Assembly (NCBI GenBank): GCA_017433415.1
Contig: JAFRHI010000016.1
Location: 2,684 to 66,683 of the forward strand
DNA: 64,000 nucleotides
From: Bacilli bacterium
Lineage (GTDB): Bacteria > Bacillota_I > Bacilli_A > RF39 > UBA660
Reading direction: 5' to 3'
Both the position numbers and the translations under genes were made by a program. Under the pieces are notes generated by a model, which was not told the DNA's origin, made no database searches, and was given only the letters and a program-made list of their open reading frames with translations. Shown here piece by piece: positions 7,112 to 44,024 of the stretch. Position 1 is the first letter of the stretch, and each line of letters opens with the position of its first letter.

Positions 7112-7120
7112 AAATCAGGA

Positions 7121-7723
7121 TTATTTTCCTGATTTTTTCTTTTTTAATTCAAGTGGAATATCTTTTGAAAAATACCACATTAATATTGATCCTATAAAGT
7201 TACCAATTATACAAATAATAATTGATGAATGGAAAGTTCTTGCTACTCCCATGGTAACAATATTTGCAATACAGTGTTGAAAACCACAGAATATAAATAA
7301 GGGAATACCATATATTATACCTAAGGCTGTTCCTTTTTTATACATGAATACAGCAATATACATGATAATACCGCATAAAATTGATTTTATAAAGAAAGCT
7401 ATTGATATATCCCAAGTTGCTACTTTTGCTATGGCATTTTTGTATACTTCTACATCAGTTATTGAATATGCTAATCCCATTAAGTATCCAGCTAGTAAGT
7501 TTATTACTAGTATTATTAGTAATGTAGTCCATTTCATTTTATCAGCAAAGAAGAAACCACATTTACCAGTAAATAGATTTTGCCCCATATAGCAAACTCC
7601 TAATAATCCTAAAGCAAAGATTACTGGTCCTATGGGGTTACCTAATTTTAATAAAGCATAATTTCCTAATGATATTAAAATTGCTGCGCCAACACTTTTA
7701 TTAATTAATTCTTTTTTATTCAT
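7121..7723 (-). CDS. small polytopic membrane protein, possibly formate/nitrite transporter (FNT)-like
   Basis: GQNLFTG resembles FNT signature 1 (G-x-[DE]-L-[FI]-T-G) and HCIANIV loosely resembles FNT signature 2. At 200 aa it is shorter than canonical FNT proteins. Confidence 0.35.
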   Translation of the reverse strand: MNKKELINKSVGAAILISLGNYALLKLGNPIGPVIFALGLLGVCYMGQNLFTGKCGFFFADKMKWTTLLIILVINLLAGYLMGLAYSITDVEVYKNAIAKVATWDISIAFFIKSILCGIIMYIAVFMYKKGTALGIIYGIPLFIFCGFQHCIANIVTMGVARTFHSSIIICIIGNFIGSILMWYFSKDIPLELKKKKSGK

Positions 7724-9271: not shown

Positions 9272-9280
9272 GGGAATGAT

Positions 9281-10048
9281 ATGGAGCAAATTTCAAAGTT
9301 TTGGTGGATTAAACAATATATTGAAGAGAAAGGATATGATGTTGGACATTCTTTACTTTCTTTTGGTCATATTATGTGGTTAATATGTATTACATTAGGG
9401 ATAATTGTTTTTATTAAAAGTTATAATAAGGCTGATGATGATGAGAAAATTTTACTAAAAAAGTATTTAGCTATTATTATATTTATATTAGAATATGTTA
9501 AAATAATTATTGTTAGTTTTATATTTCCTAATTATGCTAAAATGTATGTTCCTTTGCACTTATGTAGTTTTGCAGGATTAGCTATTATCTTAGAAGCTGG
9601 TTTTGGAAGAAAAAAAATTATTGATCAAATGTGGCTATATGTTTTTTTACCAAGCGGTTTGATTGGCCTATTATCCCCTAGTATTTCTGTACCATTTAAT
9701 AATTTTTTTACACTTCATACTTATTTATTTCACGGAATACTTGTTTTATATGCTTTTATTAAAATTATACCTGAAAAAACCAAAGCTTCTTATAAAGGGT
9801 TGTTACAGTCTAGTTTTATACTTTTATGTCTTGGAATACCAATCTATTTTTTAAACAAATGGTTTGGTACTAATTATTTTATAATTTCAGAACCAAGTGA
9901 TTTTCCTATTGCGAGGGTTTTTTGGGATTTTTTAACTCCTAAATTTGGTGAATTAGGATATGCTATTGGAGTTTTCCTATTTGCATTTTTAATTTTTAAT
10001 ATAATATATTTTATTTTATTCTTAGTTCAAAGAATGAAAAAGAAGTAG
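9281..10048 (+). CDS. polytopic integral membrane protein (YwaF/TIGR02206-like?)
   Basis: Six to seven predicted TM helices; family assignment is uncertain. Confidence 0.4.
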   Translation: MEQISKFWWIKQYIEEKGYDVGHSLLSFGHIMWLICITLGIIVFIKSYNKADDDEKILLKKYLAIIIFILEYVKIIIVSFIFPNYAKMYVPLHLCSFAGLAIILEAGFGRKKIIDQMWLYVFLPSGLIGLLSPSISVPFNNFFTLHTYLFHGILVLYAFIKIIPEKTKASYKGLLQSSFILLCLGIPIYFLNKWFGTNYFIISEPSDFPIARVFWDFLTPKFGELGYAIGVFLFAFLIFNIIYFILFLVQRMKKK

Positions 10049-12879: not shown

Positions 12880-12897
12880 AATATCTCCTTATCATTA

Positions 12898-14043
12898 CTA
12901 GGAAAATAGTGTTTCTTCTTTATTATATTGTTTTGATATGTATATTATTATTGCAACTATATAGATTATTGTTGTCACAACAACAGTTAAGAGTGATTTA
13001 TAATTTATATCATTGGCGACTATATCATTTAATAATGTTCCACAGTTTGCAATTGGTATTAAATTAACTATTTTAATATCTGTTTCCATTATTTTTATAA
13101 AGTATGGTATCATTGGCAGAAGTGAAATAAATTGTAATGCTGATTGAGCTTCTTTATATGTTTTGGCTTTTCCAGCTAAGGCCATACAAATTCCGGCAGC
13201 TAAGAACGCAGATAAAAGAATAACAAATATTACTAATAATATAACTATAATATCGGTATTAAAAACAATTTCTTCATATGATTTGAACAGTTCTTTACCA
13301 ATTATAAATGTAGGTATTGCTAAGAAATAAGCAATAAATCCGATTATAAATGCTAATATAGCTGTTGCTAGATATTTACCAAGTATTAATTCAGAACTTT
13401 TTATAGGAAATGTTAATATTGTTTCTAATGTTCCCCGTTCTTTTTCTCCTGAAGTAGCATCTGTTACTACAACCACACATACCATTACGACAATCATTAC
13501 TAAATATGTTATTACTAAACTAAAAACTAGGTTCGTCATAACATTTGATTCTTCTTTTTTTAGTGAATGAGTTTTGATAGTGATATTATTATATACCTTA
13601 TCAGGATTAATGCCATTTTCAAGGAGATATTTATTTCCTAAGACATCATTATACATTTCTAGATATGTACTAGTAACTGATAGAATTATTTCACCACTAT
13701 TTTGTGATTCATCAGCATATATTGTATAAATATCATTTTCTTTTACTAGATAAGCATCAATTTCATTATTATTATATGCTTTCTCGAGTTCATATTTATT
13801 ATTATAATTTTTTAATGTAACAGTATCTAGTTCTTCAATAATACTTATTTCTTCTTGCGTTGGTTCATAATTAGTTCCAACTTTATATTTTGTTTCATTT
13901 ACGGAGTCAAATAAGACACCAAATAATATAATTACAAATGGTATCATTAAAGGATATAGGATAAGCTTTTGGAGTGATTTTTTATCTCTAATAACACCTC
14001 GTAATTCTTTATGGATTGTTATTTTAATATTATTCCAATTCAT
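12898..14043 (-). CDS. ABC-2 type transporter permease
   Basis: N-terminal TM, a large extracytoplasmic loop and five C-terminal TMs. It overlaps the upstream ABC ATPase gene by 14 nt. Confidence 0.65.
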   Translation of the reverse strand: MNWNNIKITIHKELRGVIRDKKSLQKLILYPLMIPFVIILFGVLFDSVNETKYKVGTNYEPTQEEISIIEELDTVTLKNYNNKYELEKAYNNNEIDAYLVKENDIYTIYADESQNSGEIILSVTSTYLEMYNDVLGNKYLLENGINPDKVYNNITIKTHSLKKEESNVMTNLVFSLVITYLVMIVVMVCVVVVTDATSGEKERGTLETILTFPIKSSELILGKYLATAILAFIIGFIAYFLAIPTFIIGKELFKSYEEIVFNTDIIVILLVIFVILLSAFLAAGICMALAGKAKTYKEAQSALQFISLLPMIPYFIKIMETDIKIVNLIPIANCGTLLNDIVANDINYKSLLTVVVTTIIYIVAIIIYISKQYNKEETLFS

Positions 14044-14806
14044 TTTTAGATCCTCCTATTAATTTAAAGAATGCATCTCTTATATTAGTTGTCTTTGTCT
14101 CTTTTTCGATTTCTTTTGGAGTACCTGCCGCAATTATTTTTCCTTTATTTATTAAGATTACTTTGTCGCATATGTTTTCAGCTTCTTCCATATAATGAGT
14201 AGAATAAATGATACATTTACCATTGTTTCTCTCTTCTTTAATAAAGTCTAATATTACTTGGCTTGATATTATATCTAATCCAGAAGTTGCTTCATCTAAT
14301 ATGTAATTATGCGGGTTGTGTAATACGCATCTTGCTACCCCTACCCTTTGTACTTGGCCAGTAGATAAGTTTCCAATTCGTTGATGCTTAAACTGTTCCA
14401 TATCGAATCTTTTTATTACTTTTTTGATACGATCATTAACTATATTTTTATCTATATTATAATAATCTGCACACATTTTTAAAAGCTCTATACAGGAAAT
14501 GTCTTTGTATAGTTTTGTGTTTCCTGATAAAAAAGCAATACTTTTTTTGACTTCTATTTCATCTTTTTCATAGCTTTTATTGTCTATAAAAACTTCGCCA
14601 GATGTTGGTTTCATAATACCTGCTATTATTCTAAGAAGGGTTGTTTTTCCAGCACCATTAGGACCTAGTAATCCCAATATTTCACCGTCATTTATTTTAA
14701 ATGAAATATCTTTATCAGCATAAAATTTTGTAGTTTTACCAGTTCCATTATTTTTTTCAAATTCTTTCGATATATTCTTTACTTCTATCATATTTTCTCC
14801 TATCAT
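14030..14806 (-). CDS. ABC transporter ATP-binding protein
   Basis: Walker A GPNGAGKTT, signature LSTGQVQRVGVARCV and Walker B ILDEATSGLD. Confidence 0.85.
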   Translation of the reverse strand: MIGENMIEVKNISKEFEKNNGTGKTTKFYADKDISFKINDGEILGLLGPNGAGKTTLLRIIAGIMKPTSGEVFIDNKSYEKDEIEVKKSIAFLSGNTKLYKDISCIELLKMCADYYNIDKNIVNDRIKKVIKRFDMEQFKHQRIGNLSTGQVQRVGVARCVLHNPHNYILDEATSGLDIISSQVILDFIKEERNNGKCIIYSTHYMEEAENICDKVILINKGKIIAAGTPKEIEKETKTTNIRDAFFKLIGGSKNELE

Positions 14807-14824
14807 TTTATTTATTACTAGCTA

Positions 14825-15937
14825 TTAGTCACTAATATCTATGTCTAAGGTAATATTGATATTATAATCAGGGTATTTATTTTTTATTTCATCATATATA
14901 TTTCTATATATTTCTTCTCTATTTTTAACCTTGAAATCAATAATAATATCAAAACTAAGTAATTTATCATTCTCATCTACATAAAAACCATGCATTTGGA
15001 GAATACCTTTATGAGAAAAGACTATTTCTTGTATCTCTTTTTGAATATGCATTATATTTTTATCTTTTGTATTTACGGAATATACACCGATAGTATGTAA
15101 TAATACACCATATTTATTTTGTATTATCTTTGTTACTTTTCTTGATATCTTGTCAATCTCTGCTACGGTAAGTGTATCTGGTACTTCTATATGAACAGAT
15201 CCTAAATACTTATCAGGCCCATAATCATTTAAAACTAAATCATAAGCTCCTTGGATTTTTTCCTCTTTTACTATTTCTTTTTTGATTTTTCTAGCAAGAT
15301 CACTCTCTATTCTGACTCCTAATATATTATCTACTGATTCTTTTATTAATTCTAATCCAAATTTAATTATGAATATTGATAGTAATACTGCTACATATGC
15401 TTCTAAACTTATTTTAAATAGTATATAAATTATAGCTGATATTAAAACTGAAATAGAAAGAATACCATCATTAAATGCATCTGTACCACTTGCGATTAAT
15501 GAATCTGAATTTACTTCTCGCCCTTTTTTCTTAACATATATTCCTAATATGAATTTAACAATAATACCAGCAATTAAGATAATTATTGTAATTGAACTAT
15601 AATCAGCTGTTTCTGGATGAATTATTTTTTTTGTTGATTCAACTAATGTTGTAATACCGGCATATAAAACTATTGCGGAGACTATCATTGATGTCATGTA
15701 TTCAATTCTACCATAACCATATGGGTGTTTCTTGTCTGGAGCTTTTCCAGCTAGTTTTGTACCTACAATCGTTATGATACTTGAGAGAGCATCACTTAGA
15801 TTATTAATTGCATCAGAGATAATTGCAATAGAATTAGCTAGTAACCCTACTAAGGCTTTAAAACCAGCTAATATAATATTTGATATTATACTAACTATAC
15901 TTGTTTTTATAACGACTTTTTCTCTATTATTTCTCAT
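14825..15937 (-). CDS. cation diffusion facilitator (CDF) family metal efflux transporter
   Basis: Six TM helices with SDAINNLSD / HPYGYGRIE motifs, plus a C-terminal cytoplasmic domain. Confidence 0.8.
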   Translation of the reverse strand: MRNNREKVVIKTSIVSIISNIILAGFKALVGLLANSIAIISDAINNLSDALSSIITIVGTKLAGKAPDKKHPYGYGRIEYMTSMIVSAIVLYAGITTLVESTKKIIHPETADYSSITIIILIAGIIVKFILGIYVKKKGREVNSDSLIASGTDAFNDGILSISVLISAIIYILFKISLEAYVAVLLSIFIIKFGLELIKESVDNILGVRIESDLARKIKKEIVKEEKIQGAYDLVLNDYGPDKYLGSVHIEVPDTLTVAEIDKISRKVTKIIQNKYGVLLHTIGVYSVNTKDKNIMHIQKEIQEIVFSHKGILQMHGFYVDENDKLLSFDIIIDFKVKNREEIYRNIYDEIKNKYPDYNINITLDIDISD

Positions 15938-16033
15938 CCATTCATCTCCTATAATAAGTATAACATAGTTGCTTGTACTTTATATAATAAAAAATCTATT
16001 AAGTAATAGATTTTTTATTATTTCAATAAAGGT

Positions 16034-16240
16034 TTAATCATCTTCATCTTTCGAGTTTGAAAGAACAACACCTATACATACTCCTATACTTACACCAATC
16101 GACATCCATAGAGACATGTTGTTTGTAGCAGCACCAATTCCTGTTCCTATACTTATTCCTATGCACATTCCAATTGCTAACCAATAGCTTTTATCAGGTT
16201 TTTCTTTTTTAGTACTTGTTTTCTTTGTTTTCTTTTTCAT
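16034..16240 (-). CDS. small Gly-rich membrane protein (68 aa)
   Basis: K-rich N-terminus followed by GxxxG-rich hydrophobic segments. Confidence 0.3.
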   Translation of the reverse strand: MKKKTKKTSTKKEKPDKSYWLAIGMCIGISIGTGIGAATNNMSLWMSIGVSIGVCIGVVLSNSKDEDD

Positions 16241-16264
16241 TTATCTTAGCCTCCTATGATCTGA

Positions 16265-16972
16265 TTAACCTATTATTAAAAATCCACTTATGATTATTCC
16301 AATAACGCTTACTACTATTGAGATGATGTTTAAGGTCATTAAAGATTTATATTTTTCTTTTAAATTTTCTTTTTGTTTTTTTATAGATGACATACTTATT
16401 ACTGTATAACCAATTGATATTCCATATGTTATAGGTGAAACTACCATATTAATTGTAAATAATAATATAAATGTCAATGCTATACATGCACAACTAAATA
16501 TCAATGGTCCTTTTGCTGATTTAATTACTTTATCAATGTTTTCTGTATATACTTCGTTATTTTGAACACTTTGACCTGTATTGTCTCTTATATTTGTTAT
16601 TCCAAATTTATTGCCAGCAATTACAACAACATCAGCATATGTATCATTTGTTATATTTATATTTTGATTCATGGTCTTATTAAAAGATATTGTATGATTC
16701 CCAGAATTTACATTTAAAACAACAGTTTCATCGTTCTTGATAGTTCCTACTTCATTATTATCAATATATATTTTAAATTTGATTAATGAACCAACAAAAT
16801 TTTTGGGCCTAGTTAAAGTTAATTTATAAGTACTATTATTAATATTTTCTTGTGGTTGGACAAATTGATTCTGTTGTTGCGGTTGTTGAGCATTGTTTTC
16901 TAATATAGTACCGCACTTTATACAAAACTTATTACCTTCATTATTTTGAAAACCACATTTACTACAATACAT
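16265..16972 (-). CDS. zinc-ribbon domain membrane protein
   Basis: N-terminal CSKCG...CIKCG zinc ribbon, a Gln-rich linker, a beta-rich domain and two C-terminal TMs. Confidence 0.5.
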   Translation of the reverse strand: MYCSKCGFQNNEGNKFCIKCGTILENNAQQPQQQNQFVQPQENINNSTYKLTLTRPKNFVGSLIKFKIYIDNNEVGTIKNDETVVLNVNSGNHTISFNKTMNQNINITNDTYADVVVIAGNKFGITNIRDNTGQSVQNNEVYTENIDKVIKSAKGPLIFSCACIALTFILLFTINMVVSPITYGISIGYTVISMSSIKKQKENLKEKYKSLMTLNIISIVVSVIGIIISGFLIIG

Positions 16973-17210
16973 GTTACTACCTCCTATTATTAGAAGTGTA
17001 GCATATTTTATGAGTTTTTTAAACTGTTTTTAATATTTATTTCTTCTATTGTTGTTTTAAAATGAGAAAAATTAAGGATGCTATAATCGCTTATATTATC
17101 TCTTTTTTTGTGATAATAAAGAAGTAATCCAGCAAAAATACATAGTGTTGTGATAATTCCAACTGTTATTAAAAATTGGTTGTTTGCATATTAGGAACAA
17201 GTGCTATATA

Positions 17211-17882
17211 CTAATAATCTTCATAGTAATTCAGTATTTTTTCCATTGTTCCATCTTTTTTTGCTTTATCCCATTCTCCTTTATATATTTTTCTTGCATA
17301 ATCTTTATCTAAGTATTTTTTTTGAAATTCATCTCTTCTTTTGATTAAAGTTGGATTATTTGTCCAAAGATTAAAAACGCCAGATGCATTTATTCTCCCA
17401 CATATATATTCATAACATCTTTCAAAATGCGCATCAAAAGTTTTAATATTTGGATAACATTTCAATGTTGTATTTATTTGCCTTCTTGCTAAAATGGAAA
17501 TATCAAAATCTCTATCTGAGTCTGAGATGCATTCTCCATAAAAATTTCTTGGCCTTATTTTTCTAGAACCTCTATGATCTTCTATTGCCTCTTTCATAAT
17601 CTTTATTTCTTCGTTAGTAAAATACTTTTTTAATTCCATATCATTATATAATATCTTACCGGATTCTTTTTCGTGATTATCTCTATCTATACCTAATCCA
17701 GAATCATGATAACATGCAACAACATATGCCATATCTTTATTTAAATCGTAGTATTCAGCAAGCATCATCATATTTTCTATGACTGCATTTATGTGCATCA
17801 TTCCATGAGCATAGAACTTATCATATTTTGGGAATATGTTTTCCTCTATATGCTTCTTTAATTCTTGATTAATTCCTTTCAT
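17211..17882 (-). CDS. HD-domain phosphohydrolase (paralog 1)
   Basis: H...HD metal-binding motif (HGMMHIN ... CYHDSGL). It is about 75% identical to the ORF at 20914-21582. The start was trimmed to MKGINQ, which follows GAGAGGAGAT. Confidence 0.75.
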   Translation of the reverse strand: MKGINQELKKHIEENIFPKYDKFYAHGMMHINAVIENMMMLAEYYDLNKDMAYVVACYHDSGLGIDRDNHEKESGKILYNDMELKKYFTNEEIKIMKEAIEDHRGSRKIRPRNFYGECISDSDRDFDISILARRQINTTLKCYPNIKTFDAHFERCYEYICGRINASGVFNLWTNNPTLIKRRDEFQKKYLDKDYARKIYKGEWDKAKKDGTMEKILNYYEDY

Positions 17883-17999
17883 ATTTATCTCCTCTCTAAT
17901 ATACAGACATTCTCGCAATACCATGTCCTGGGGCGAAGAACATATGCTCTAGGGCTGTACTAGGTCAACAGAATATGTTTCCAGTACCATCTATCACAT
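17883..17999 (-). promoter_or_regulatory. conserved 5' leader/promoter module, copy A
   Basis: TTGACCTAG...ATATGTTCTTCGCCCCAGGACA..ATTGCGAGA.TGTCTGT.TATTAGAGAGGAGAT is shared almost verbatim with 18964-19090. Confidence 0.5.
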
Positions 18000-18473
18000 T
18001 TAAATGTATTTTTCCAATACATAAGCATATCCTTTATTTACTTTTCCGTCTTTAATTTTATTGATAATTTCTTCTTTTGAATACCAATTGATGTTTACCA
18101 CTTCATTAGTATCGTATTCTATACTATCTATATCTATTTCATCTTCTATTAAATAAATATTAAAGATGTAACTATTGTATGGATATATAATTGTATCTAT
18201 ATGTCTAATATTAACATTTTCTAAATTTAATTCTTCTTTTAATTCTCTTTTTAAACCAGTCAACCTATCTTCTCCAGCAAGTACATGTCCACCTGGAATA
18301 GCTAATGTATTATTACTACGTGCTGTTGCTTGCTCTAAAAGATATTTATCATTATTTTTAATTAAAACATAACTCATCATTACATAACAACCTTCCGGTA
18401 TTTCATCTACTATTCTTCTAATCGTTTTATCTAATCTATTAAAGTTACTGTCATATAAATCTTCTAATTCCAT
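18000..18473 (-). CDS. NUDIX hydrolase
   Basis: Nudix box GGHVLAGEDRLTGLKRELKEELNL. Confidence 0.75.
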   Translation of the reverse strand: MELEDLYDSNFNRLDKTIRRIVDEIPEGCYVMMSYVLIKNNDKYLLEQATARSNNTLAIPGGHVLAGEDRLTGLKRELKEELNLENVNIRHIDTIIYPYNSYIFNIYLIEDEIDIDSIEYDTNEVVNINWYSKEEIINKIKDGKVNKGYAYVLEKYI

Positions 18474-18540
18474 AATTACCTCCTTTCTAAAACTGCGATG
18501 GAGTCACAATGGGGTGTATCAGTGTCAGTGCTAAGTCATA

Positions 18541-18963
18541 TTATTTAATTAGTTCTAAATTACCATCAATAATAATTGGACTAAATCCTTCTATTTCATC
18601 ATATAACATACCATTAGGAATATCATTATATAAATATATTTTTTTACCTAATCTAAATGCATCATACATTTCCAAGAATGTAGCTCCTCCAATGTAGTTT
18701 TTTAATATTTTTCCTTCTTTTTCTTTATCTAGATTTAATACTAAAACTGCATCCATATTTGAAATTGTATCTTCACTTTGTTTGTACATTGCTGCTTTAA
18801 ATTTTTGATGTTCTTCTGCTCCTAAATCCCATGCTTTTTGTTCAGCAGTTGGATCATCATAACAATTTGGTAAGAATACTTCAATATTTTTCTTTTCCAA
18901 ATTCTTTTTAACTTCTTCTATTTTTGAATAAAACTTTTTACTACATATTATTAATATTTTCAT
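18541..18963 (-). CDS. nucleoside 2-deoxyribosyltransferase-like (PF05014-like) small Rossmann protein
   Basis: MKILIICSKKFY start and C-terminal GGATFLEMYDAFRLGKKIYL, which resembles the family's G..E.GYA..GK motif. This is a tentative assignment. Confidence 0.4.
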   Translation of the reverse strand: MKILIICSKKFYSKIEEVKKNLEKKNIEVFLPNCYDDPTAEQKAWDLGAEEHQKFKAAMYKQSEDTISNMDAVLVLNLDKEKEGKILKNYIGGATFLEMYDAFRLGKKIYLYNDIPNGMLYDEIEGFSPIIIDGNLELIK

Positions 18964-19090
18964 TTTTTATCTCCTCTCTAATAAACAGACACTCTCGCAA
19001 TATCCTGTCCTGGGGCGAAGAACATATTGTTGAACCTCATTCTAGGTCAATAGAACATGTTCTTAAACTCCTAGAACTAGGCATGTTCTA
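18964..19090 (-). promoter_or_regulatory. conserved 5' leader/promoter module, copy B (contains the AGAACATGTTCT palindrome)
   Basis: About 100 nt nearly identical to 17883-17999; includes a perfect 12-bp palindrome and a second CTAGAAC...GTTCTAG inverted repeat. Confidence 0.5.
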
Positions 19091-19237
19091 GGATAAAGAT
19101 AATGTCATAATTGTTGCTATTATTATATTTTCATTACTAAAATCTTTTACATATAAATATTATCATAAATATTATTAATTATCTATACTGCAATTTTTAA
19201 TGACATCATTTATTAATTTATCATTTTCAATTTTGTT

Positions 19238-20056
19238 TTATATTTCATTTATTGCAAAACACTTCTTTCCTAGATCTTTAAATGATGCTCCACAGTGAAA
19301 AACTCTTTCTCTATCTATAATTATAAATCTATCATGATAGGAATCATTATTTATAAACAATACATTATTATATTGTTTTAGATATTTATTCCTTAAATTA
19401 TCATTTATATTAGATGAAATAATTATTATATTTTTATCAATATTTCTGAGATCATCTAATAATACTTTACCTATGTAGTTATCTATAATTATTATTTCTT
19501 CTTTAGCTATGTCAAATATTTCTATTAGTACTGAGTATGCATCATATATATCATTCTGAAAAAATATAGAGTTTTTAGTGATTACTTTTGGATTGAATTT
19601 ATCAAATAATTCATCTATTCTTTTTGTATTTTCATCTACTTTGTCTTCTAAAAGCAAGTATTTGCGTGGTAGTAGTTGTTCGTTATATTTAATATAATGC
19701 CTCATTCTTACAAATGCTCTCATAATATCAATACTTACTTTAGCAGCTACATCCGTTCTTATTATAGTCGCAAGCATTGCTACTCCTTGTTCAGTAAAAA
19801 CATATGGTAAACTTCTAATTTTATTATTTTGAAGTTTCAAATTGAAACCGCAAATTTGATTATATTCTTCTTTGTTCAACTGAAAATAAAAATCACTTGG
19901 AAATCTATCTTTATTCCTTTTTACAGCTAGATTAATAGATTTAGTACCATTTGCACATTGGTATTGTTCTGCTAAATCTGAATCTAACATCACCTCTACT
20001 CCTCTAATATTATAAATTTTTCTTTCAATATATTTTATTTCTGCTATTTCATTCAT
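19238..20056 (-). CDS. ORF6N-domain protein (phage antirepressor-like N-terminal domain) with a C-terminal extension
   Basis: N-terminus IYNIRGVEVMLDSDLAEQYQ...AVKRNKDRFPSDFYFQLNKEE...LPYVFTEQGVAMLATIIRTDVAAKVSIDIMRAFVRMR is a textbook ORF6N (pfam10543) match. Confidence 0.75.
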   Translation of the reverse strand: MNEIAEIKYIERKIYNIRGVEVMLDSDLAEQYQCANGTKSINLAVKRNKDRFPSDFYFQLNKEEYNQICGFNLKLQNNKIRSLPYVFTEQGVAMLATIIRTDVAAKVSIDIMRAFVRMRHYIKYNEQLLPRKYLLLEDKVDENTKRIDELFDKFNPKVITKNSIFFQNDIYDAYSVLIEIFDIAKEEIIIIDNYIGKVLLDDLRNIDKNIIIISSNINDNLRNKYLKQYNNVLFINNDSYHDRFIIIDRERVFHCGASFKDLGKKCFAINEI

Positions 20057-20263
20057 AATTTAACCTCCTCCTTTAGAATAAAAAAAGGATATCCCCTTCA
20101 TCCTATTAAAAGGGATATCCCGCAGCATGCAATAATTCTTCCTTGCCTTAAAGAATTAGAACTTTAGCGTCCAAATTGTCATATTAACTCATGGCAAGAT
20201 AATTAATATATTTGAAATATATCATAATTATTTCTATAACTCAATCGAACAAAACTATCAACA

Positions 20264-20869
20264 TTATTTTAAATTCTGAACAAAAACCAAATCTTTTATA
20301 TTATGCTTTTCTAACAAGTTAAAACACTCACTCTTATAATCAATTGGAATTATTATTATATTACTTTTTGTTAAATTTTTTGGTAAAAAAGCAATACAGT
20401 ATTTTGTTATTAAAATTAATTTTAAATCTTCTAAATCTAGATCAAATGTTATTTTTCCTTTTTTGTTTATTAGAGAGATTTTTTTGGAATTCATTGATAG
20501 CACTGAATCTGATTCTTCTCTACACGCTTCTTTTATTATTTTCGATATTGTAATTATGTCTTTCAAATAAACAATAATTGCCATAATGGTAAATCCTATA
20601 ATAAAACAATTAAACCAAAGAGGATTTTTAAATATTATAAGCATTGTAATTACATAAACAATTATAGCAATAGTAATATATATTCGTTCTGTTGTGTATC
20701 CAATTATTTTCTTGTTAGGATTATTTAACAATTGATTATAGTGTTTTATTATGGCATAACATTCATTTGAATATTTTTTCTTATCTTTTATTTTTTTTAT
20801 TTGAATTTCCATATTAGTTACTACCTTTCTAAAACTATGTTTGATGTTTAAAAACATGGCCCTACACAT
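20264..20869 (-). CDS. hypothetical 2-TM membrane protein
   Basis: ORF with two hydrophobic helices; no motif recognised. Confidence 0.35.
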   Translation of the reverse strand: MCRAMFLNIKHSFRKVVTNMEIQIKKIKDKKKYSNECYAIIKHYNQLLNNPNKKIIGYTTERIYITIAIIVYVITMLIIFKNPLWFNCFIIGFTIMAIIVYLKDIITISKIIKEACREESDSVLSMNSKKISLINKKGKITFDLDLEDLKLILITKYCIAFLPKNLTKSNIIIIPIDYKSECFNLLEKHNIKDLVFVQNLK

Positions 20870-20913
20870 AAAACCACTTAGGATGTTTGATTATTAGGAA
20901 CAAGTGCTATATA

Positions 20914-21582
20914 CTAATAATCTTCATAGTAATTTATTATTTTTTCATATGTTCCATCTTTTTTTATCTTATCCCATTCTTTTTTGTATATAGATTTTGC
21001 ATATTCTTTATTTAAATATTCTTTTTGAAATCTATCTCTTCTTTCAACTAACATAGGATTATTAGTCCAAAGATTAAATTTACCATTATCATTCAATCTT
21101 TTACACATATAACTATAACAATTATCAAAATGCTCTTCGAAGTTATAATTAGGATAATGCTTTATTGAAGTTGATATTTGCCTTTTAACTAATAGTTTTA
21201 TATCAAAATCTCTATCAGAATCAGATACACACTCTCCATAAAAATTCCTTGGTCTTGTTTTTCTAGAGCCTCTATGATCTTCTATAGCTTCCTTCATTGT
21301 GATTAATTGTTCTTCACTAAAATGTTTTTTTAATTCCTGATCATTTATTAATATTTTACCTGATTCATATTCATGATTTTCGCGGTCTATACCTAAACCA
21401 GAATCATGATAGCTTGCTATTGTATATGCCATATTACAATCCAAATCATAATAATCTGCTAGCATTAACATATTTTCAATAACATTATTAATGTGTATCA
21501 TTCCATGAGAATAGAATCTATCGTATTTTGGGAAAATGTTTTCTTCTATATACTTCTTTAATTCTTGATTAATTCCTTTCAT
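20914..21582 (-). CDS. HD-domain phosphohydrolase (paralog 2)
   Basis: HGMIHIN ... SYHDSGL. It is a paralog of 17211-17882 with an identical 3' flank TAGTATATAGCACTTGTTCCTAAT. Confidence 0.75.
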   Translation of the reverse strand: MKGINQELKKYIEENIFPKYDRFYSHGMIHINNVIENMLMLADYYDLDCNMAYTIASYHDSGLGIDRENHEYESGKILINDQELKKHFSEEQLITMKEAIEDHRGSRKTRPRNFYGECVSDSDRDFDIKLLVKRQISTSIKHYPNYNFEEHFDNCYSYMCKRLNDNGKFNLWTNNPMLVERRDRFQKEYLNKEYAKSIYKKEWDKIKKDGTYEKIINYYEDY

Positions 21583-21755
21583 ATTTATCTCCTCTCTAAT
21601 ATACAGACACTCTCACAATGGGTGGTCACCTATTCAGGAATAGGTCATTCAACCATGTTTCATATTTAAAAATATGTTCCTATACACAAAACTACCAGGG
21701 TTGATTGCGCATTAGGAATAAATCGATTTATTATTTAATATATTTAAATATTATT

Positions 21756-22298
21756 CTATTCTTTTAACCATACTGCATAAGGTTCAACTAAATCTGCTAC
21801 AAGTACCTTTATTTCTTCATCATTACTATCTTCATTATATTTAGCAAAGCATTTGTTAACTTTAAATTTTAAATGTTCTCTTAATACTTTGCCATTATTT
21901 TTTCCACCTACTACCACAAAATCATTCAATTTGAAATTATCATATTCCCTTATATTTTTTGCAACAAATGAAAATTGAGCTCCTTGCAGTTGGACTGGAC
22001 TTTTAAACTTTTTATAATTAATATTATCATCCGAATATTCGTTTATGAATCCAATATTAGAATTATAAGAACTTTTAGTTTCTATCAAAACCAGTTTAGG
22101 AGAATTACCATTTAATATGGATTCTTTGCAAAAATTTTGTACCCGATTTGGTCTACAAAACACCCCTGAATAACCCCAATAATGAACCCCATTACCAATT
22201 TCCTCTTTATTTTTTGATTCTATAATTTTATCTAACGACATATCATTGTGTGGCCCAACTTTCATTACAATTATATCTTCAAGTTTTTCCAATATCAT
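21756..22298 (-). CDS. hypothetical protein
   Basis: ORF preceded by the GTTTTAGAAAGG-type leader; no motif recognised. Confidence 0.4.
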   Translation of the reverse strand: MILEKLEDIIVMKVGPHNDMSLDKIIESKNKEEIGNGVHYWGYSGVFCRPNRVQNFCKESILNGNSPKLVLIETKSSYNSNIGFINEYSDDNINYKKFKSPVQLQGAQFSFVAKNIREYDNFKLNDFVVVGGKNNGKVLREHLKFKVNKCFAKYNEDSNDEEIKVLVADLVEPYAVWLKE

Positions 22299-22454
22299 AA
22301 TTTAATTCCTTTCTAAAACACAAATAGACTCAACATGGCTAGACCGCGGGTTTTTGCTATGTCATTTTTACCATGATCATGGGTTTTTGCATGGATATTA
22401 CCAACGAACTTCCAACCTTGTATGTGGGTTATTTGCATAGTCATTGTATTTTTA

Positions 22455-22979
22455 TTAATTCATATAATCAAGAACTTTATTGCAATATTTTATAGCCTCT
22501 ACCATTTCTTTATTATTAAAAATTTCATTATATTTTTTCTTATCTACAAATATAACTTCTGATACTTCTGATTCTTGCATTTTTAATGTTTTTATATCAA
22601 TATCTTTTTGAACTAAAAATAGATATGTATAATGATTAATAAATGTATCTTTATCTAATTTCACTTTATTTAAATACGTATCAATTAACTTAAGTTCTTC
22701 TATTTCAACTTTGATTCCTGTTTCTTCAAATAGTTCTCTTACGGCTGCTTGTTCAGGAGTCTCATCAATATCTATATGACCAGCGCCAGATAAGTCCCAC
22801 TTATTTGGTTCATTTTTTTTATTTGCCGATCTTTTTTGAATCAATAATTTTCCATCTTTATCAATTAAAGCAATAGCACTTATTCCATGACATATACCTT
22901 CTTTATGAGCAATTGTCTTATTAATTCTTTTATATGTTTCTTTTCCATCTTCAGTTAATATTTCTACTATTTCATCCAT
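22455..22979 (-). CDS. NUDIX hydrolase (Idi/ADP-ribose pyrophosphatase-like)
   Basis: Nudix box SGAGHIDIDETPEQAAVRELFEETGI. Confidence 0.75.
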   Translation of the reverse strand: MDEIVEILTEDGKETYKRINKTIAHKEGICHGISAIALIDKDGKLLIQKRSANKKNEPNKWDLSGAGHIDIDETPEQAAVRELFEETGIKVEIEELKLIDTYLNKVKLDKDTFINHYTYLFLVQKDIDIKTLKMQESEVSEVIFVDKKKYNEIFNNKEMVEAIKYCNKVLDYMN

Positions 22980-23117
22980 AAACTTATCCTTCTATTTTCT
23001 TTCTAAAACTGTGATACTTTCGCAATGCCGTGTTCGTTAATTATAAATAGTTGCTTTTTATATGTTTGGGTATAACTGACTACTTCATAATAAACACTCT
23101 TGATAGTTGACTGCTTA

Positions 23118-24305
23118 TTATGTATAATTCTTATTTTTTAATTTTATAAGTAATCTTGAATATATTAGTATTACTATAGTCACTATGAGTAATAAAAATT
23201 TAAATATCATTATGTTATTAAATAGACTTATAATAAATAGTGCTGTATATCCAATAATTCTAGTAATATTTAAGACTACTTCGCATACAACTTGATGCTC
23301 CACTATATAATCTTTTTTTATCTTTTTATCTTCTTCTACTATTTCATATCTTTGTGTATCTCCAGTATTGCTTAATATTACCAAAAATAAAGCTGTACAT
23401 ACATTGTATACTACAATGGTTGGCTTACTAATATTTATAAATAATAACAATACACTTAGTATCATCATTATATTACATATCTTTAATATTAAACTACTAC
23501 TTTTCAATTTATATTGAAATATATATACTGATAAAATTGAACATATTGATGTAAAAGTGGTAATAACTCCTAAACTAATAGTCGTTTTAAATGTCATAAC
23601 TGTTACAATTACAATTAGTGTTTCTAATAAATAGTTAACTATTCCATCGCATATACATATTTTATATATTGTTTTAAATTTATCGTTACTTTTTACCAAA
23701 TTTACATATTCTTTTAAACTATATTGCTTATCATATGTTTTTGCTTTATCTTCAATAAATAACGAGAATATAAATTGAGTTATAGAAAGCAAAATTATTA
23801 TTTTTGCAACATATGAAAACGATGTTAATTCTATTGAAACACCAAATATAATTGGAAAAAATATTTTTAGTATTTTACTAATTATTGATTTAAATGAAAT
23901 AAATTTGTTTGTATTGTTTTTAGTATGTTCATTTACAAGAGGATGAGCGGCACTCCATATTAATCCTTGTACAATTCCATAAAAGAAACCTAGCGGTGCA
24001 AAATATATCACTATTTTTTCTTTTAATAGTGCTATCATTAATATATATAAACAATATGTAATTATTCCACTTCTAAATACCCACAATTGATTTTTATTTT
24101 TAATTATTTTCCCAAACACTAAAAATGTTAGCATTATTGCAATAAATGATAATGAATAATAAATTGATATTAATTTATAATCATAATTTGTAAGTGTAAT
24201 AAAATATGCAACCATAAAAGTATTTAAAAACATATATAAAATGTTATTTATTAATAATGTTCCCATTAATCCTATTGCACTTTTACTTAATTTTTCTTCC
24301 TTCAT
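23118..24305 (-). CDS. MFS-type transporter
   Basis: Twelve predicted TM helices in a 6+6 arrangement. Confidence 0.6.
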   Translation of the reverse strand: MKEEKLSKSAIGLMGTLLINNILYMFLNTFMVAYFITLTNYDYKLISIYYSLSFIAIMLTFLVFGKIIKNKNQLWVFRSGIITYCLYILMIALLKEKIVIYFAPLGFFYGIVQGLIWSAAHPLVNEHTKNNTNKFISFKSIISKILKIFFPIIFGVSIELTSFSYVAKIIILLSITQFIFSLFIEDKAKTYDKQYSLKEYVNLVKSNDKFKTIYKICICDGIVNYLLETLIVIVTVMTFKTTISLGVITTFTSICSILSVYIFQYKLKSSSLILKICNIMMILSVLLLFINISKPTIVVYNVCTALFLVILSNTGDTQRYEIVEEDKKIKKDYIVEHQVVCEVVLNITRIIGYTALFIISLFNNIMIFKFLLLIVTIVILIYSRLLIKLKNKNYT

Positions 24306-24499: not shown

Positions 24500-25684
24500 T
24501 TATTTAGAGTTTAGAACGCACACACATTCCACATGATATGTTCTAGGGAACATATTAAATGGTTTAATATAATTTATATTATAGGAAGTATTTAGATCTT
24601 TTAAATCACGCATTAAAGTCATTATATCACACGATACATAAATTATAGTCTTACTATCCAATTCTTTTAAAATCTCTCTTGTATGGGCATCTAAACCACT
24701 TCTAGGAGGGTCTACTACTATTAAATCTATATCTTTAAAAGCTTCTATTCTATTTTCTACTTTATCACAGATAAACTTTATATTATTACATTTATTTAAT
24801 TCTATATTTTTATTAGCGTCTTCTATATTTGATTTATTATAATCTATTCCTATTATTTCTTTACAGTAGTCAGATATATATATACCAATTGTTCCAGTTC
24901 CACAATATAAATCTAATACTCTATTGGGTTTTATTTTTTTTACAGTATTTCTTACTTCATCATATAATGAGCTTGTTAAGAATCTATTTACTTGGAAGAA
25001 TGATTTACTAGACACATAATACTTTTTATCATTAATAGGACTAATAATTGATTTATCATTACTTAATAATTTGTTGTTTACTATTAATACATTAGCTATA
25101 TTTAATAATTTATCATGATTAGTAATTTCTCCTTTTATATCTACTAAGATATTTGTTAAATCATTACTTGTTTTAATTGTTACTTCTTCAATATTATCTT
25201 CTTTTACTTGTTCTATTATTTCATTTATTTTATCGTTTACTAATAGACATTTATTAATAGGAATAATCTCATTAGAGTGTTTTTTATATTGACCTAATAC
25301 TTTGCTTTTACCATGAAGAACTATTTTATTACGATAGGTATTTTCTTTTGAAAAGGATATTTCTTTTATTTCTATATCTTCATTTAAATACTTTTTTACT
25401 AATTCTTTTACCTTAGTATATTTAAATTCATTTTCTTTTGAATAATCTAAGTGATTTAGATCACATCCACCACATTCATTTGAATAAGGGCAAAGGGGTT
25501 TAATTCGATCATTTGATTTTTTTATTATTTTTAATACTTGAGCTTCTTTGTATTTCTTTTTTTCATTTATTATTTCTATATCAACTATTTCTCCTGGTAG
25601 AGCATTTTCTACAAAGACAATTTTTTCATCTATATAGGTTATTCCTCGTCCAAAATTATCTAATTTTTCAATTGTTACTTCCAT
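24500..25684 (-). CDS. rlmD: 23S rRNA (uracil-C5)-methyltransferase, RumA/RlmD family
   Basis: N-terminal TRAM domain; Cys cluster CPYSNECGGCDLNHL plus a downstream Cys; SAM motif LDLYCGTGTIG; catalytic DPPRSG and a C-terminal Cys. Confidence 0.85.
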   Translation of the reverse strand: MEVTIEKLDNFGRGITYIDEKIVFVENALPGEIVDIEIINEKKKYKEAQVLKIIKKSNDRIKPLCPYSNECGGCDLNHLDYSKENEFKYTKVKELVKKYLNEDIEIKEISFSKENTYRNKIVLHGKSKVLGQYKKHSNEIIPINKCLLVNDKINEIIEQVKEDNIEEVTIKTSNDLTNILVDIKGEITNHDKLLNIANVLIVNNKLLSNDKSIISPINDKKYYVSSKSFFQVNRFLTSSLYDEVRNTVKKIKPNRVLDLYCGTGTIGIYISDYCKEIIGIDYNKSNIEDANKNIELNKCNNIKFICDKVENRIEAFKDIDLIVVDPPRSGLDAHTREILKELDSKTIIYVSCDIMTLMRDLKDLNTSYNINYIKPFNMFPRTYHVECVCVLNSK

Positions 25685-27534: not shown

Positions 27535-27560
27535 AAACTGCAAAAGTGCAGTTTTTTATT
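27530..27560. terminator. bidirectional rho-independent terminator
   Basis: AAAAACTGCAAAAGTGCAGTTTTTT is a 6-7 bp stem flanked by A and T tracts, sitting between the convergent + and - strand genes. Confidence 0.6.
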
Positions 27561-29289
27561 TTAATTTTAGACCAACATCATCAAGTTGCATTTGATCTAC
27601 TGTATTTGGACATTCGCTCATTAAGTCAGATGCTGAAGCTGTTTTAGGGAATGCTATTACATCTCTGATATTATCTGTTCCGGCTAATAGCATTGTTAAT
27701 CTATCTAAGCCAAGAGCAAATCCTCCATGTGGTGGGCATCCATACTTTAATGCTTCTACAAAGAAGCCAAATTTTGATTCAATTTTTTCTTCCGTAAGTT
27801 CTAAAGCCTTAAACATAGTTTCTTGAACTTTTTCATCATGAATACGTATTGAACCGCCTCCTGCTTCATAACCATTGATTACAATGTCATAAGCTTTTGA
27901 ATAGCAATTTGCTTTATCTGTTAATAATTTATCAACATCTTCATCTTTTGGCATTGTAAATGGGTGATGACACGCCATAAAACGATTTTCTTCTTCGCTC
28001 CATTCAAATGATGGAAAATCGGTTACCCATAGTAATTTATAATCATTTTTATCAATTAATTCTAATTCTTTAGCTAATTTGCATCTTAAAGCTCCTAATG
28101 ATGCTTTAACAATATTTCTTTTACCACTTACTATTAATACTAAATCTCTGGCTTCTATTTCTAATACTTTCTTTAATTCTTCTATTTCTGCTTCTTTCAT
28201 GGCTTTAAAAATTGAACCTGATATTTCATCTTGAAATTTTAAATATGCAAGACCTGTTGCTTTATATGTTTTTACGAATTCAGTTAATTTATCAAGGTCT
28301 TTTCTAGAATACTTATCAGCAGCATTTTTAACAACAATGGCATTAATAATTCCTTTTTCTTCATATACATTCTTAAAAACAGTAAAATCAGTTTCTTTAA
28401 AAACTTCTGTAATGTCTTTTATTTCCATTCCAAAACGTAAATCTGGTTTGTCAGAACCATATTTATCAATGGCTTCATCATATTTCATTCGCATTAATGG
28501 TAATTTAATATCTATTCCTTTTGTTTCTTTAAATATGCTTGCTACTAACTGTTCCCCTACTTCCATTACTCCTTCTTCATCTACAAATGACATTTCTACG
28601 TCAATTTGGGTAAATTCTGGTTGACGATCGGCTCTTAAATCTTCATCTCTGAAACATTTAGCAATTTGATAATATCTTTCTACACCTGAAACCATTAATA
28701 GTTGTTTGAAAATTTGAGGTGACTGTGGTAAGGCATAAAATTTTCCTTTATTAACACGGCTTGGTACTAAATAGTCTCTTGCTCCTTCTGGTGTGCTTTT
28801 ACATAATATTGGTGTTTCAACTTCTAAAAAATCTAGACTATTAAAAAACTTTCTAGCTGCAAAAGTAATATTATTACGTAAAACTAAAATGTTTTTTAAA
28901 TTATCTCTCCTTAAATCTAAATAGCGATATTTTAATCTTGTGTCTTCTAAGGCTGTAGTATCATCAGTAATTGTAAATGGTAAATCTTTTGATTTATTAA
29001 TTAATTCAAGGTTAGTTAAATCTATTTCTATTTCACCACTAGCTAAGTTTAAGTTTTTACTTTCTCTTTCTACAATTATACCTTGAACACGAATAACATA
29101 TTCACTTTTTAATTCACTAGCAAGATTGTAAAATTCGTTTTCTGGTCTAACAACCACTTGTACTATTCCAGATCTGTTTCTTAAATCAATGAAAATAAGG
29201 CCTCCAAGATTTCTAGCTCTAGCAACCCAACCATATAACTCTACTTTTTCACCTACATTTTTTAAATTATAATATTTGTATTTTTCCAT
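27556..29289 (-). CDS. aspS: aspartate--tRNA ligase
   Basis: Class II aaRS motifs (FRDEDLRADRQPEFTQID, GGGSIRIH, GLDRL) and an N-terminal anticodon-binding OB fold; 577 aa. Confidence 0.95.
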   Translation of the reverse strand: MEKYKYYNLKNVGEKVELYGWVARARNLGGLIFIDLRNRSGIVQVVVRPENEFYNLASELKSEYVIRVQGIIVERESKNLNLASGEIEIDLTNLELINKSKDLPFTITDDTTALEDTRLKYRYLDLRRDNLKNILVLRNNITFAARKFFNSLDFLEVETPILCKSTPEGARDYLVPSRVNKGKFYALPQSPQIFKQLLMVSGVERYYQIAKCFRDEDLRADRQPEFTQIDVEMSFVDEEGVMEVGEQLVASIFKETKGIDIKLPLMRMKYDEAIDKYGSDKPDLRFGMEIKDITEVFKETDFTVFKNVYEEKGIINAIVVKNAADKYSRKDLDKLTEFVKTYKATGLAYLKFQDEISGSIFKAMKEAEIEELKKVLEIEARDLVLIVSGKRNIVKASLGALRCKLAKELELIDKNDYKLLWVTDFPSFEWSEEENRFMACHHPFTMPKDEDVDKLLTDKANCYSKAYDIVINGYEAGGGSIRIHDEKVQETMFKALELTEEKIESKFGFFVEALKYGCPPHGGFALGLDRLTMLLAGTDNIRDVIAFPKTASASDLMSECPNTVDQMQLDDVGLKLK

Positions 29290-29292: not shown

Positions 29293-29490
29293 TCACTCTC
29301 CTATAATATAAAAACAGTTATCATCCTCTAAGGGACGAATAACTGTTAGATCCGCGGTACCACCCAATTTACTATTAAATAGTCACTTTTATGATAACGG
29401 TATAAACCGGATTGATTACAATCAAACTCCTAAGTGTCTTCCTTTATTTATATTTGCTAATTTTCACCGACCATTAGCTCTCTAAAAAAT
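29293..29490 (-). promoter_or_regulatory. T-box riboswitch leader (Asp specifier GAC) with terminator/antiterminator
   Basis: The minus-strand RNA contains AGAGAG...GA stem I, GGAAGACACUUAGG with a GAC codon, the T-box sequence AAAUUGGGUGGUACCGCGG, and the terminator AACAGUUAUUCGUCCCUUAGAGGAUGAUAACUGUUUUUAU. Confidence 0.85.
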
Positions 29491-29566
29491 TAAATAAAGT
29501 ACTCCTCTTAATCAACGTTTCTAGCTATATTCTAAAACTATATTTTAAATTTGTCAAATTTTATGA

Positions 29567-44017: not shown

Positions 44018-44024
44018 AATGCAA

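Follow-up and report, generated by a model that had tools for sequence, protein, structure and literature searches.

How a bacterial genome comes to hold a run of unrelated small enzyme genes, most of them preceded by nearly the same DNA, is the question raised by a 64-kb stretch of contig JAFRHI010000016.1 from a Bacilli bacterium (the window, in whose positions all coordinates are given). An earlier note on this DNA had described eight genes at 17170-23040: two HD-domain paralogs (HD1 and HD2), two NUDIX genes, a nucleoside 2'-deoxyribosyltransferase-like (NDT-like) gene, an ORF6N-domain gene and genes for a small membrane protein and a 180-aa protein. It proposed either the remnant of a prophage or integrative and conjugative element (ICE), or a co-regulated set of nucleotide-cleaning genes. 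All eight do lie on one strand, the minus strand. The feature, however, reaches past that interval, up to a transporter gene of the major facilitator superfamily (MFS) and the 3' end of a methyltransferase gene at 24535. We interpret the segment from 24535 down to ~17178 on the minus strand as a tandem array of small, mostly single-gene and mostly promoterless cassettes, inserted serially into the last ~36 nt of the methyltransferase gene, and assign this reading a probability of roughly 0.78.

Sample and comparison loci

The window was compared with loci fetched as the genomic contexts of HD homologs, ORF6N homologs and pattern matches, which carry L-numbers (L001, L006, L009 and so on). An unbiased set of 26 displaced copies of the repeated element was found with a nucleotide profile that had no codon awareness. 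A metagenome set of at least 120 contigs from rumen and gut was retrieved with a degenerate, codon-aware pattern of the element. Pfam searches for an integrase covered the 20 larger open reading frames (ORFs) of the window, and those of the cassette genes covered 52 representatives, with the 25 most frequent of 68 matched families listed.

The repeated element is the end of a methyltransferase gene

A 36-nt element precedes six of the eight genes (HD1, HD2, NUDIX1, NUDIX2, the NDT-like gene and the 180-aa gene), and a degenerate copy lies before the membrane protein gene; the flanks shared by the HD genes, which had been read as specific to that pair, are thus common property of the cluster. 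ATTGYGA-N10-15-TTAGARAG has five occurrences in the 64 kb, all of them within the cluster, and none in shuffled sequence. Read in frame, the element encodes H-C-E-S-[IV]-x-[VI]-L-E-R-[RK]-stop, the C-terminus of a TRAM-domain uracil-5 (U5; RumA-type) methyltransferase. In L006, L009, L010 and L015 the motif is the true end of the methyltransferase ORF (...FNMFPRTYHCESITVLERR, then the stop codon), and the ATG of an HD gene follows 2-4 nt past the stop. The terminal Glu-Arg-Arg/Lys codons (GAGAGGAGA) double as the Shine-Dalgarno sequence of the next gene.

The displaced copies, which we call relics, retain the imprint of translation. In the unbiased set, 22 of the 26 copies are still open over 11 codons and have a stop at the twelfth, and 42% of pairwise codon differences are synonymous in the methyltransferase frame, compared with 19% and 8% in the other two frames. 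Column-shuffle controls averaged 17% synonymous differences (s.d. 5%), and none of 300 reached 42%. Serine is variously encoded by AGT, AGC, TCA, TCC and TCT, and leucine by TTA, CTT, CTA and CTC. The frame is shut by stop codons directly 5' of the His codon, and the three bases 5' of that codon fit the consensus of real genes in 5-8% of relics versus 66-92% of functional genes. Because codon-phased synonymous divergence is possible only under translation, the relics are former functional methyltransferase ends, each a gene tail joined at a sharp boundary to non-coding DNA that we term the arm.

An element held at a fixed distance from a ribosome-binding site and an ATG might also be a cis-regulatory RNA, either a riboswitch or a translational-repressor hairpin (ATTGYGA-N5-TCRCRGT) sensing a nucleotide-related ligand. 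About 70% of copies are able to form a 6-7-bp hairpin, G-U pairs included, and the genes behind them in the window are nucleotide-related. However, the stem fails (4/7 pairs) in ~30% of copies, those with Cys at residue 6, and covariation is absent from the sole variable pair (G stands opposite C in 26% of cases and opposite T in 30%, C.A being the commonest combination). Genes as unrelated as those for transporters and GNATs, among many more, also lie behind the leader, which varies in a codon-phased manner and is itself the coding end of a protein gene. We dropped the riboswitch idea, which now seems hardly credible, because the leader has no Rfam match even at E <= 10, because the motif is a coding 3' end and because the covariation test failed. 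Annotators should be warned that "leaders" conserved in this setting are not riboswitches. Readings of the motif as a sigma-70 promoter, a LexA (Cheo) box, a CRP-like site, CIRCE or a sigma-54 site were also rejected, as the spacings misfit the consensus sequences by eye, and a promoter scan of the array did no better than shuffles.

The core of the element is an imperfect palindrome, ATTGTGA-N5-TCACAGT (e.g., L006 9963-9981), with at least 6 of 7 pairs present in 38 of 47 unique functional ends. Judged from its sequence, this dyad could be a recombinase binding site.

Organization of the array in the window

The anchor methyltransferase gene is divergent from the adjoining GerA gene, an arrangement repeated in L006, L010, L015, L172 and L174. 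From the anchor to the distal end, the array comprises the following features.

24500-25684, minus: anchor gene, TRAM-domain tRNA/rRNA (uracil-5) methyltransferase of RumA/RlmCD type, 394 aa (Pfam tRNA_U5-meth_tr 1.7e-24, TRAM 2.7e-11)
24500-24535, minus: functional methyltransferase end, last 11 codons (HVECVCVLNSK) and stop, the array's current attachment point
23118-24305, minus: first cassette, MFS transporter, 395 aa (Pfam MFS_1; 99% identical to the L001 copy)
22992-23027, minus: relic R1 (HCESITVLERK, stop) before NUDIX2, with an upstream arm at ~23028-23117
22455-22979, minus: NUDIX2 cassette gene, 174 aa (Pfam NUDIX 7.2e-20)
22302-22337, minus: relic R2 (HVESICVLERN, stop) before the 180-aa gene, with a class-5 arm at ~22338-22440
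21756-22298, minus: 180-aa cassette gene (99% identical copy in L001)
21585-21620, minus: relic R3 (HCESVCILERR, stop) before HD2, with a class-3 arm at ~21621-21720
20914-21582, minus: HD2 cassette gene, 222 aa, HD-domain phosphohydrolase (YedJ-like)
20818-20916, minus: truncated class-3 arm joined to the tail of degenerate relic R4 (...TTTTAGAAAGGTAGTAA), before the membrane protein gene
20264-20812, minus: small membrane protein cassette gene, 182 aa from the likely ATG (97% identical copy in L001)
20086-20121, minus: intrinsic terminator with a 15-bp stem and T-run, the array's sole strong one, which would close the first transcription unit
19238-20056, minus: ORF6N-domain protein, 272 aa (PF10543; PADLOC candidate family PDC-S05)
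18967-19110, minus: class-2 arm (~19003-19110) and relic R5 (YCESVCLLERR, stop; 19002-18967) before the NDT-like gene
18541-18963, minus: NDT-like cassette gene, 140 aa (AlphaFold and Foldseek)
18476-18511, minus: relic R6 (HCDSIAVLERR, stop) before NUDIX1, with a short class-4 arm at 18512-18540
18000-18473, minus: NUDIX1 cassette gene, 157 aa (Pfam NUDIX 1.9e-11)
17885-17999, minus: class-2 arm and relic R7 (YCENVCILERR, stop; 17920-17885) before HD1
17211-17882, minus: HD1 cassette gene, 223 aa from the ATG common to HD2 (Pfam HD 1e-05)
17178-17213, minus: stub of a class-3/4 arm (TAGTATATAGCACTTGTTCCTAATATGCAAACAACC), the array's distal end, where arm similarity ends

The class-2 arm at ~19003-19110 contains a 9-bp inverted repeat (CCTAGAAC.../...GTTCTAGG). 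The longest HD1 ORF (237 aa, from 17924) begins at an ATG that lies out of frame within relic R7 (MVLRECLYIREEIN...), whereas the start common to HD2 and all homologs is at 17882. Gene callers may over-extend cassette genes in this way, as in the 237-aa version of HD1 beginning inside a relic.

Polarity and extent across metagenomes

The arrangement is not confined to the window. The metagenome scan, together with the loci retrieved earlier, yielded at least 187 motif copies, 60 functional ends and 123 displaced relics. Among the matches listed, every contig with both kinds of copy (17 of 17) has the functional end first and the relics behind it on the same strand. The longest arrays among these matches hold 7 copies in 7 kb, the start codon lies 2-3 nt past the stop at 112 of 142 junctions, units (repeat spacing) have a median of 790 nt and ORFs one of 182 aa. 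Contigs retrieved through the ORF6N protein, and so independently of the pattern, likewise carry up to 7 relics. With at least 120 rumen and gut contigs recovered in the scan, the arrangement is abundant in those communities.

Origin of the HD pair and exchange between genomes

HD1 and HD2 have 73% protein identity (the earlier note gave about 75%) and 77% DNA identity. As had been noticed, their 3' flanks agree, being identical over 25 nt that comprise the stop codon and the 22 next bases (TAGTATATAGCACTTGTTCCTAATA), and at their 5' ends they are near-identical from ~38 nt ahead of the ATG to ~70 nt into the coding sequence. These likenesses had been attributed to a segmental duplication that carried the flanks along, which does not hold. 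HD1 has 94-97% DNA identity to genes of L015, L025 and L001, and HD2 has 96% DNA identity to the L009 gene directly behind that genome's methyltransferase. Since each is nearer to genes in other genomes than to the other, the two represent separate acquisitions rather than a local duplication. The identical flanks are generic cassette boundaries common to unrelated genes.

A broader form of that idea holds that duplication in place copied the HD gene together with its flanks and that the shared leaders are signals of a vertically inherited nucleotide-sanitation regulon. The genes are indeed co-oriented behind one shared leader with a ribosome-binding site, the array has a single internal terminator, the theme of HD, NUDIX and NDT-like enzymes is coherent, and the HD family is strongly conserved, being present in 43 species-level genomes. 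Yet duplication in place followed by drift cannot yield codon-phased leader differences, the same leader stands ahead of more than 65 unrelated families, and gene content varies among near-identical strains. We consider this origin very improbable. What survives of the earlier suggestion of a co-regulated regulon is the single ribosome-binding leader and the apparent read-through design; the sharing itself comes from the mode of insertion and not from a regulatory RNA.

Strain variability is best seen in L001, a close relative whose MFS and 180-aa proteins are 99% identical to those of the window. L001 contains a NUDIX134 cassette that is not in the window, and its HD1-type cassette lies between the 180-aa gene and HD2, whereas in the window it occupies the distal end. 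A third HD gene is present as well, and one or more additional cassettes lie upstream of the MFS gene. There, the MFS gene is preceded by an arm and a relic encoding HVECVCVLNSK and a stop, which is the functional tail in the window, with synonymous differences. Breakpoints between the two arrays fall at the relic start and ~30 nt past the cassette stop codon. Strains with shared genes 95-99% identical still differ in gene content, and this bears out the suggestion that the island is mobile and variable; conservation of gene order as core genome was not seen, since order and content vary between close strains.

Cassettes have also crossed much larger distances. The HD genes of L009 and L015 have 94-96% DNA identity to those of the window (85-91% at synonymous third positions), while the adjoining methyltransferase and GerA genes have 39-59% protein identity and 49-61% identity at third positions, which is approximately saturation. 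Near-identity of the HD genes despite such near-saturated neighbors shows recent cassette transfer between distantly related genomes. Contigs with the low-GC, Firmicute-type HD gene (L009-L051) are labelled Bacillales, Erysipelotrichaceae, Clostridia, Mollicutes, Saccharibacteria, Nanosyncoccus and Muribaculaceae. Either the taxonomy of metagenome-assembled genomes (MAGs) is inconsistent or unreliable here, or certain bins are contaminated.

Traces of recombination are found within cassettes as well. At L132 6920-7270, and also in L057, a 116-aa ORF joins a TM1586 nitroreductase-like N-terminus (MDKELYEMIFKRKSFHLFRNIG...) to the C-terminal ~50 residues of an ORF6N protein (...NNNSYHDRF...), a recombination scar between two cassettes.

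Cassette genes and their possible functions

More than 65 protein families sit behind a functional or relic tail among the matches listed. Pfam assignments of cargo clusters include NUDIX (5), GNAT (4), HD (4-5), HAD (3), Ham1 (2) and Peptidase_S51 (2), and single clusters correspond to a His-phosphatase, an NDT-like protein, HIT, a TM1586 nitroreductase-like protein, a methyltransferase, EamA and LysE transporters, and others. The cargo of the window is a sample of this pool, in which small hydrolases directed at nucleotides and enzymes that modify small molecules predominate.

HD1 scores 26.2 bits against a Pfam HD cutoff of 22 bits, and HD2 falls under the cutoff at 17.7 bits. The metal-binding residues of the H...HD...D signature (H26/H30, H59-D60, H103 and D123) are invariant in the HD alignment, and the HD profile matches YedJ (3gw7) at E = 0.0085. 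NUDIX2 shows sub-threshold similarity to Nudix proteins of the IPP-isomerase type. The 140-aa protein reaches no Pfam or NCBIfam family above threshold (PF05014 and PF15891 included) and has no PDB sequence match. Its AlphaFold (AF2) model has a predicted local distance difference test score (pLDDT) of 86 and matches nucleoside 2'-deoxyribosyltransferase, DNPH1 and the CMP N-glycosidase BcmB best in Foldseek (E 9e-5 to 1e-3, template modelling score ~0.5), with SLOG and TIR domains among the matches too. Two of its homologs are annotated by JGI as "nucleoside 2-deoxyribosyltransferase". The NDT-like name proposed earlier, which no sequence profile backs, therefore holds at the level of the predicted fold only. 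The 180-aa protein has zero matches in Pfam, NCBIfam, PADLOC, PHROGs and PDB sequences, and the small membrane protein has two hydrophobic segments seen in its sequence.

The ORF6N protein carries its domain (PF10543, 8e-28) at residues 13-98, with no assigned domain in the C-terminal half, and its AF2 model (pLDDT 44) is unusable. The window gene stops at a TAA (19238-19243) where L001 has GAA. The 21 codons beyond this stop (NKIENDKLINDVIKNCSIDN, then two stop codons), down to 19175, remain in frame, and homologs measure 287-296 aa. Either a nonsense mutation arose here recently or the early stop is a sequencing error.

ORF6N, Bro-N or KilA-N proteins occur in 20 of 133 motif-bearing loci and are always co-oriented with the array, with a class-2 arm and relic typically ~170-240 nt downstream of the gene. 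The order ORF6N gene, arm, relic is also found in L001, L066, L078, L106, L172 and L174. In L004, two 283-aa Bro-N paralogs (8450-9301 and 16009-16860; 74% identical) lie 7.5 kb apart on one strand and bracket NUDIX, HD, GNAT and purine-biosynthesis genes, with one of the two directly behind the methyltransferase. A 209-aa HTH_XRE-family protein is encoded directly behind the methyltransferase in L172 (~9127-9756) and L174 (~6996-7625), which are independent long contigs. It is possibly an array-associated regulator. An XRE-like 297-aa protein is another cassette cargo.

Variable hotspots in bacterial genomes frequently house defence genes, and the cassettes may be viewed as an anti-phage defence islet acting on nucleotide pools, a function compatible with the array structure that would fit part of the cargo. 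The ORF6N protein is a full-length match (6.6e-85) to PDC-S05, a PADLOC candidate family of which another member, of RhuM type and distinct from the window protein, protected E. coli ~1000-fold from T7 and T5 according to a preprint (bioRxiv 10.1101/2024.09.26.614923). Both NUDIX proteins match PDC-S07, weakly and at domain level (1e-10 to 3e-12), and the fold of the NDT-like protein is akin also to SLOG and TIR domains. Nonetheless, the PDC-S07 matches are generic domain matches, and HD1, HD2 and the NDT-like, 180-aa and membrane proteins have no PADLOC match. Much of the wider cargo (transporters, GNATs, HAD, Ham1, His-phosphatase and S51 peptidase) has more the look of accessories for metabolism or detoxification. 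We regard a dedicated defence islet as unlikely. The cassettes of the window most plausibly serve exchangeable functions in nucleotide-pool hygiene, detoxification or defence.

A classical integrative element as a possible source

A further explanation is that the array is a decayed classical integrative element, either a prophage or a rumA-targeting ICE or integrative and mobilizable element (IME) of the serine-integrase type, whose integrase and transfer genes are gone. Mobile elements often carry ORF6N, Bro-N and KilA-N proteins. Moreover, ICEs and IMEs with serine integrases have been documented to target rumA in streptococci and C. difficile (PMC4701971, PMC5704250), and accretion of decayed att-flanked elements, known as cis-mobilizable elements (CIMEs), has been documented (PMC5704250). 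The units seen here, however, are ~0.8 kb long, hold a single gene and recur up to 7 times, with no integrase, relaxase or phage fragments in window ORFs, inspected arrays or listed cargo. The rumA insertions on record lie inside the gene, with repeats of 2-21 bp, and alter both the C-terminus and the frame of RumA, whereas here the last 11 codons are faithfully replaced.

Nothing in the surroundings restores the prophage or ICE remnant that the earlier note had offered as one option. Pfam found no integrase in the 20 larger window ORFs. In PHROGs, window proteins matched only generic NUDIX and HD families and the N-terminal domain of anti-repressor families, with no core or structural phage genes, and phage, plasmid and viral collections gave no matches. 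No tRNA gene lies near the array, the nearest being 20 kb off at 43934-44101. The ORF6N domain, which had been taken as a hallmark of mobile elements, is real but a weak hallmark in a protein that matches PDC-S05 over its full length and is a recurrent array resident. We consider a decayed element of this type quite unlikely.

How cassettes may be inserted

Functional methyltransferase ends have been displaced in series, the arrays are polar, and cassettes have been gained, lost, reshuffled and passed between genomes. We propose that each cassette would bring a replacement for the last 11 codons and stop of the methyltransferase directly 5' of its gene, and a non-coding arm of ~30-130 nt downstream of it. 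Insertion would leave the methyltransferase whole and move the previous 3' end and the older cassettes downstream; because old 3' ends would be displaced at each insertion, one relic end would come to stand before every gene. The exchange would occur inside the conserved CATTGYGA core or at its 5' edge, by recombination through circular or flanked intermediates. A newcomer would then be translated from read-through transcripts of the methyltransferase promoter. The ORF6N gene would open a second transcription unit past the terminator at 20121-20086.

That a trans-acting site-specific recombinase does the work is the option we prefer and, in our estimate, an even bet. In its favor, the boundary is uniformly sharp across at least five arm classes, the last 36 nt are near-identical in methyltransferases otherwise ~40% identical, and the core has dyad symmetry in most alleles. 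RecA-type recombination between the repeated spacers is a possibility that we rate at somewhat below even odds. Mosaic relic alleles, which are suggestive of ordinary homologous exchange between 36-150-nt repeats, speak against a site-specific enzyme, as do the heterogeneous, unstructured arms and the negative searches for recombinases and circular contigs given below.

Several observations weigh against serial cassette insertion as we describe it. No recombinase was found in the 20 larger window ORFs (Pfam), in the inspected arrays or among the 25 most frequent listed cargo families. None of the fetched loci included a contig with the terminal overlaps expected of a circle, although short-read assemblies are a poor test. 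Comparison of the HD1 cassette with phage and plasmid collections, and of the relic pattern with viral contigs, revealed no phage, plasmid or viral carriers. The arms, in their five or more classes, have no common fold (DNA-fold z-scores -3.4 to +1.3), and their reshuffling is not wholly predicted by a simple attP x attB scheme. Relic R1, for one, might have arisen by simple recombination between the relics on either side of NUDIX134 in L001, but it proved to be a third allele. All comparison sequences come from short-read assemblies (MAGs or metagenomes), which may join repeats wrongly. Finally, the relic statistics free of selection bias rest on 26 copies only, and because the metagenome set was selected by a codon-aware pattern, the intactness of its copies is biased.

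A bolder extension, which we hold to be doubtful, is that the arrays belong to a dedicated gene-capture platform in uncultured gut and rumen Firmicutes, a differently built analogue of the integron whose attachment site would be the last 11 codons of the methyltransferase and whose recombinase would act in trans. In such a platform, the mobile cassette would join a single ORF to a recognition arm and to a replacement tail that also supplies the ribosome-binding site. Cassette traffic would then explain why gene tails agree so closely in otherwise dissimilar methyltransferases. The array-resident ORF6N protein is a speculative candidate for the recombinase, as its conserved C-terminal H-x-R...D...G-A-S segment resembles, by eye only, a degenerate phospholipase D (PLD/HKD) motif.

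Comparison with known systems

Integrons are the textbook route by which bacteria stockpile and express promoterless cassettes. As in the array, whose cassettes are promoterless in our reading, their cassettes are co-oriented, small (~0.5-1 kb), mostly promoterless and mostly single genes, with a recombination-site-like repeat between every gene pair and apparent entry at the promoter-proximal end. Integron cargo is likewise rich in GNATs, NUDIX proteins and small proteins of unknown function, and its content is strain-variable. Integrons differ in having an adjacent intI, where the upstream neighbors of the array are the methyltransferase and GerA or PriA, and in their attC sites, which are imperfect hairpins that the array spacers do not resemble. 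Furthermore, the array inserts at the coding 3' end of a housekeeping gene, and its cassettes bring replacement codons and a ribosome-binding site. To our knowledge, integrons are essentially absent from Firmicutes. In polymorphic toxin loci (rhs, cdiA), recombination near the 3' end of a gene displaces earlier ends downstream, each with an attached gene. There, the displaced piece is a variable toxin tip with its immunity gene, whereas in the array it is a constant tail with unrelated cargo.

Tandem accretion of CIMEs (ICESt1/ICESt3; PMC5704250) resembles the array in leaving the target gene intact, in placing older units distally and in units that have no integrase of their own, and direct repeats of the target's 3' end flank the units, as do the seven relics in the window. 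The array units, however, are 10-50 times smaller, are single genes and are fused precisely to a relic for translation. No integrase or transfer gene, resident or decayed, is present in the arrays inspected, and up to 7 units stand in series with the design kept across many genomes. Tycheposon islands of Prochlorococcus (bioRxiv 10.1101/2020.12.28.424599) share repeated integration at one site, the pushing of older elements inward and partial target copies, and their cargo consists of niche-adaptive "plug-in" functions. They differ by their tRNA targets, tyrosine recombinases, replication modules and multi-kb cargo, as opposed to a protein-coding target, one gene per unit and no hallmark genes found. 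The rumA-targeting ICEs and IMEs (Streptococcus, C. difficile CTn5; PMC4701971) share the 23S rRNA uracil-5 methyltransferase family as target and Firmicute hosts, but they are large and integrase-encoding as well as differing in the site and repeats described above.

Searches of the accessible literature, an incomplete sample, turned up no account of such an array anchored on a methyltransferase gene. We would file the array as a member of no named family, with an accretion logic like that of CIMEs and tycheposons and a cassette logic like that of integrons. Its outcome appears integron-like by another route, as ordered, co-oriented and exchangeable cassettes are laid down from one entry point in the coding tail of a gene, and each cassette would repair the methyltransferase and donate a ribosome-binding site for its own ORF. 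The array design carries a large pool of genes for small hydrolases directed at nucleotides, acetyltransferases, transporters and kinase-like proteins, and it travels between genomes that have reached substitutional saturation in their core genes. The 36-nt relic offers a sequence handle for mining accessory genes of uncultured Bacilli, relics provide a per-genome fossil record of past insertions, and the recombinase acting on CATTGYGA becomes a concrete search problem.

Neighboring genes

On the 3' side of the array, a 68-aa Gly/Ile-rich membrane peptide (16034-16240, minus strand) is 67% identical to the product of a 71-aa array gene in L001. Its family sits directly behind real or relic methyltransferase ends in metagenomes, although no relic accompanies it in the window, and the variable zone may reach past HD1. 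Close relatives still differ beyond the array (window 12880-17177 versus L001 9370-10550), and similarity returns at window position 12879. In the window this segment encodes a zinc-ribbon/DUF2846 protein, the 68-aa peptide, a cation-efflux-like ORF (by sequence) and apparent ABC transporter genes, and in L001 a glycosyltransferase instead. A HerA-like helicase gene (PF05872, 1.4e-192) at 5567-7111 on the plus strand, in the upstream part of the window, has no relation to the array. A T-box leader (134.6 bits; 29328-29524, minus strand) precedes a class II aspartyl-type tRNA synthetase gene (27556-29289), an ordinary arrangement.

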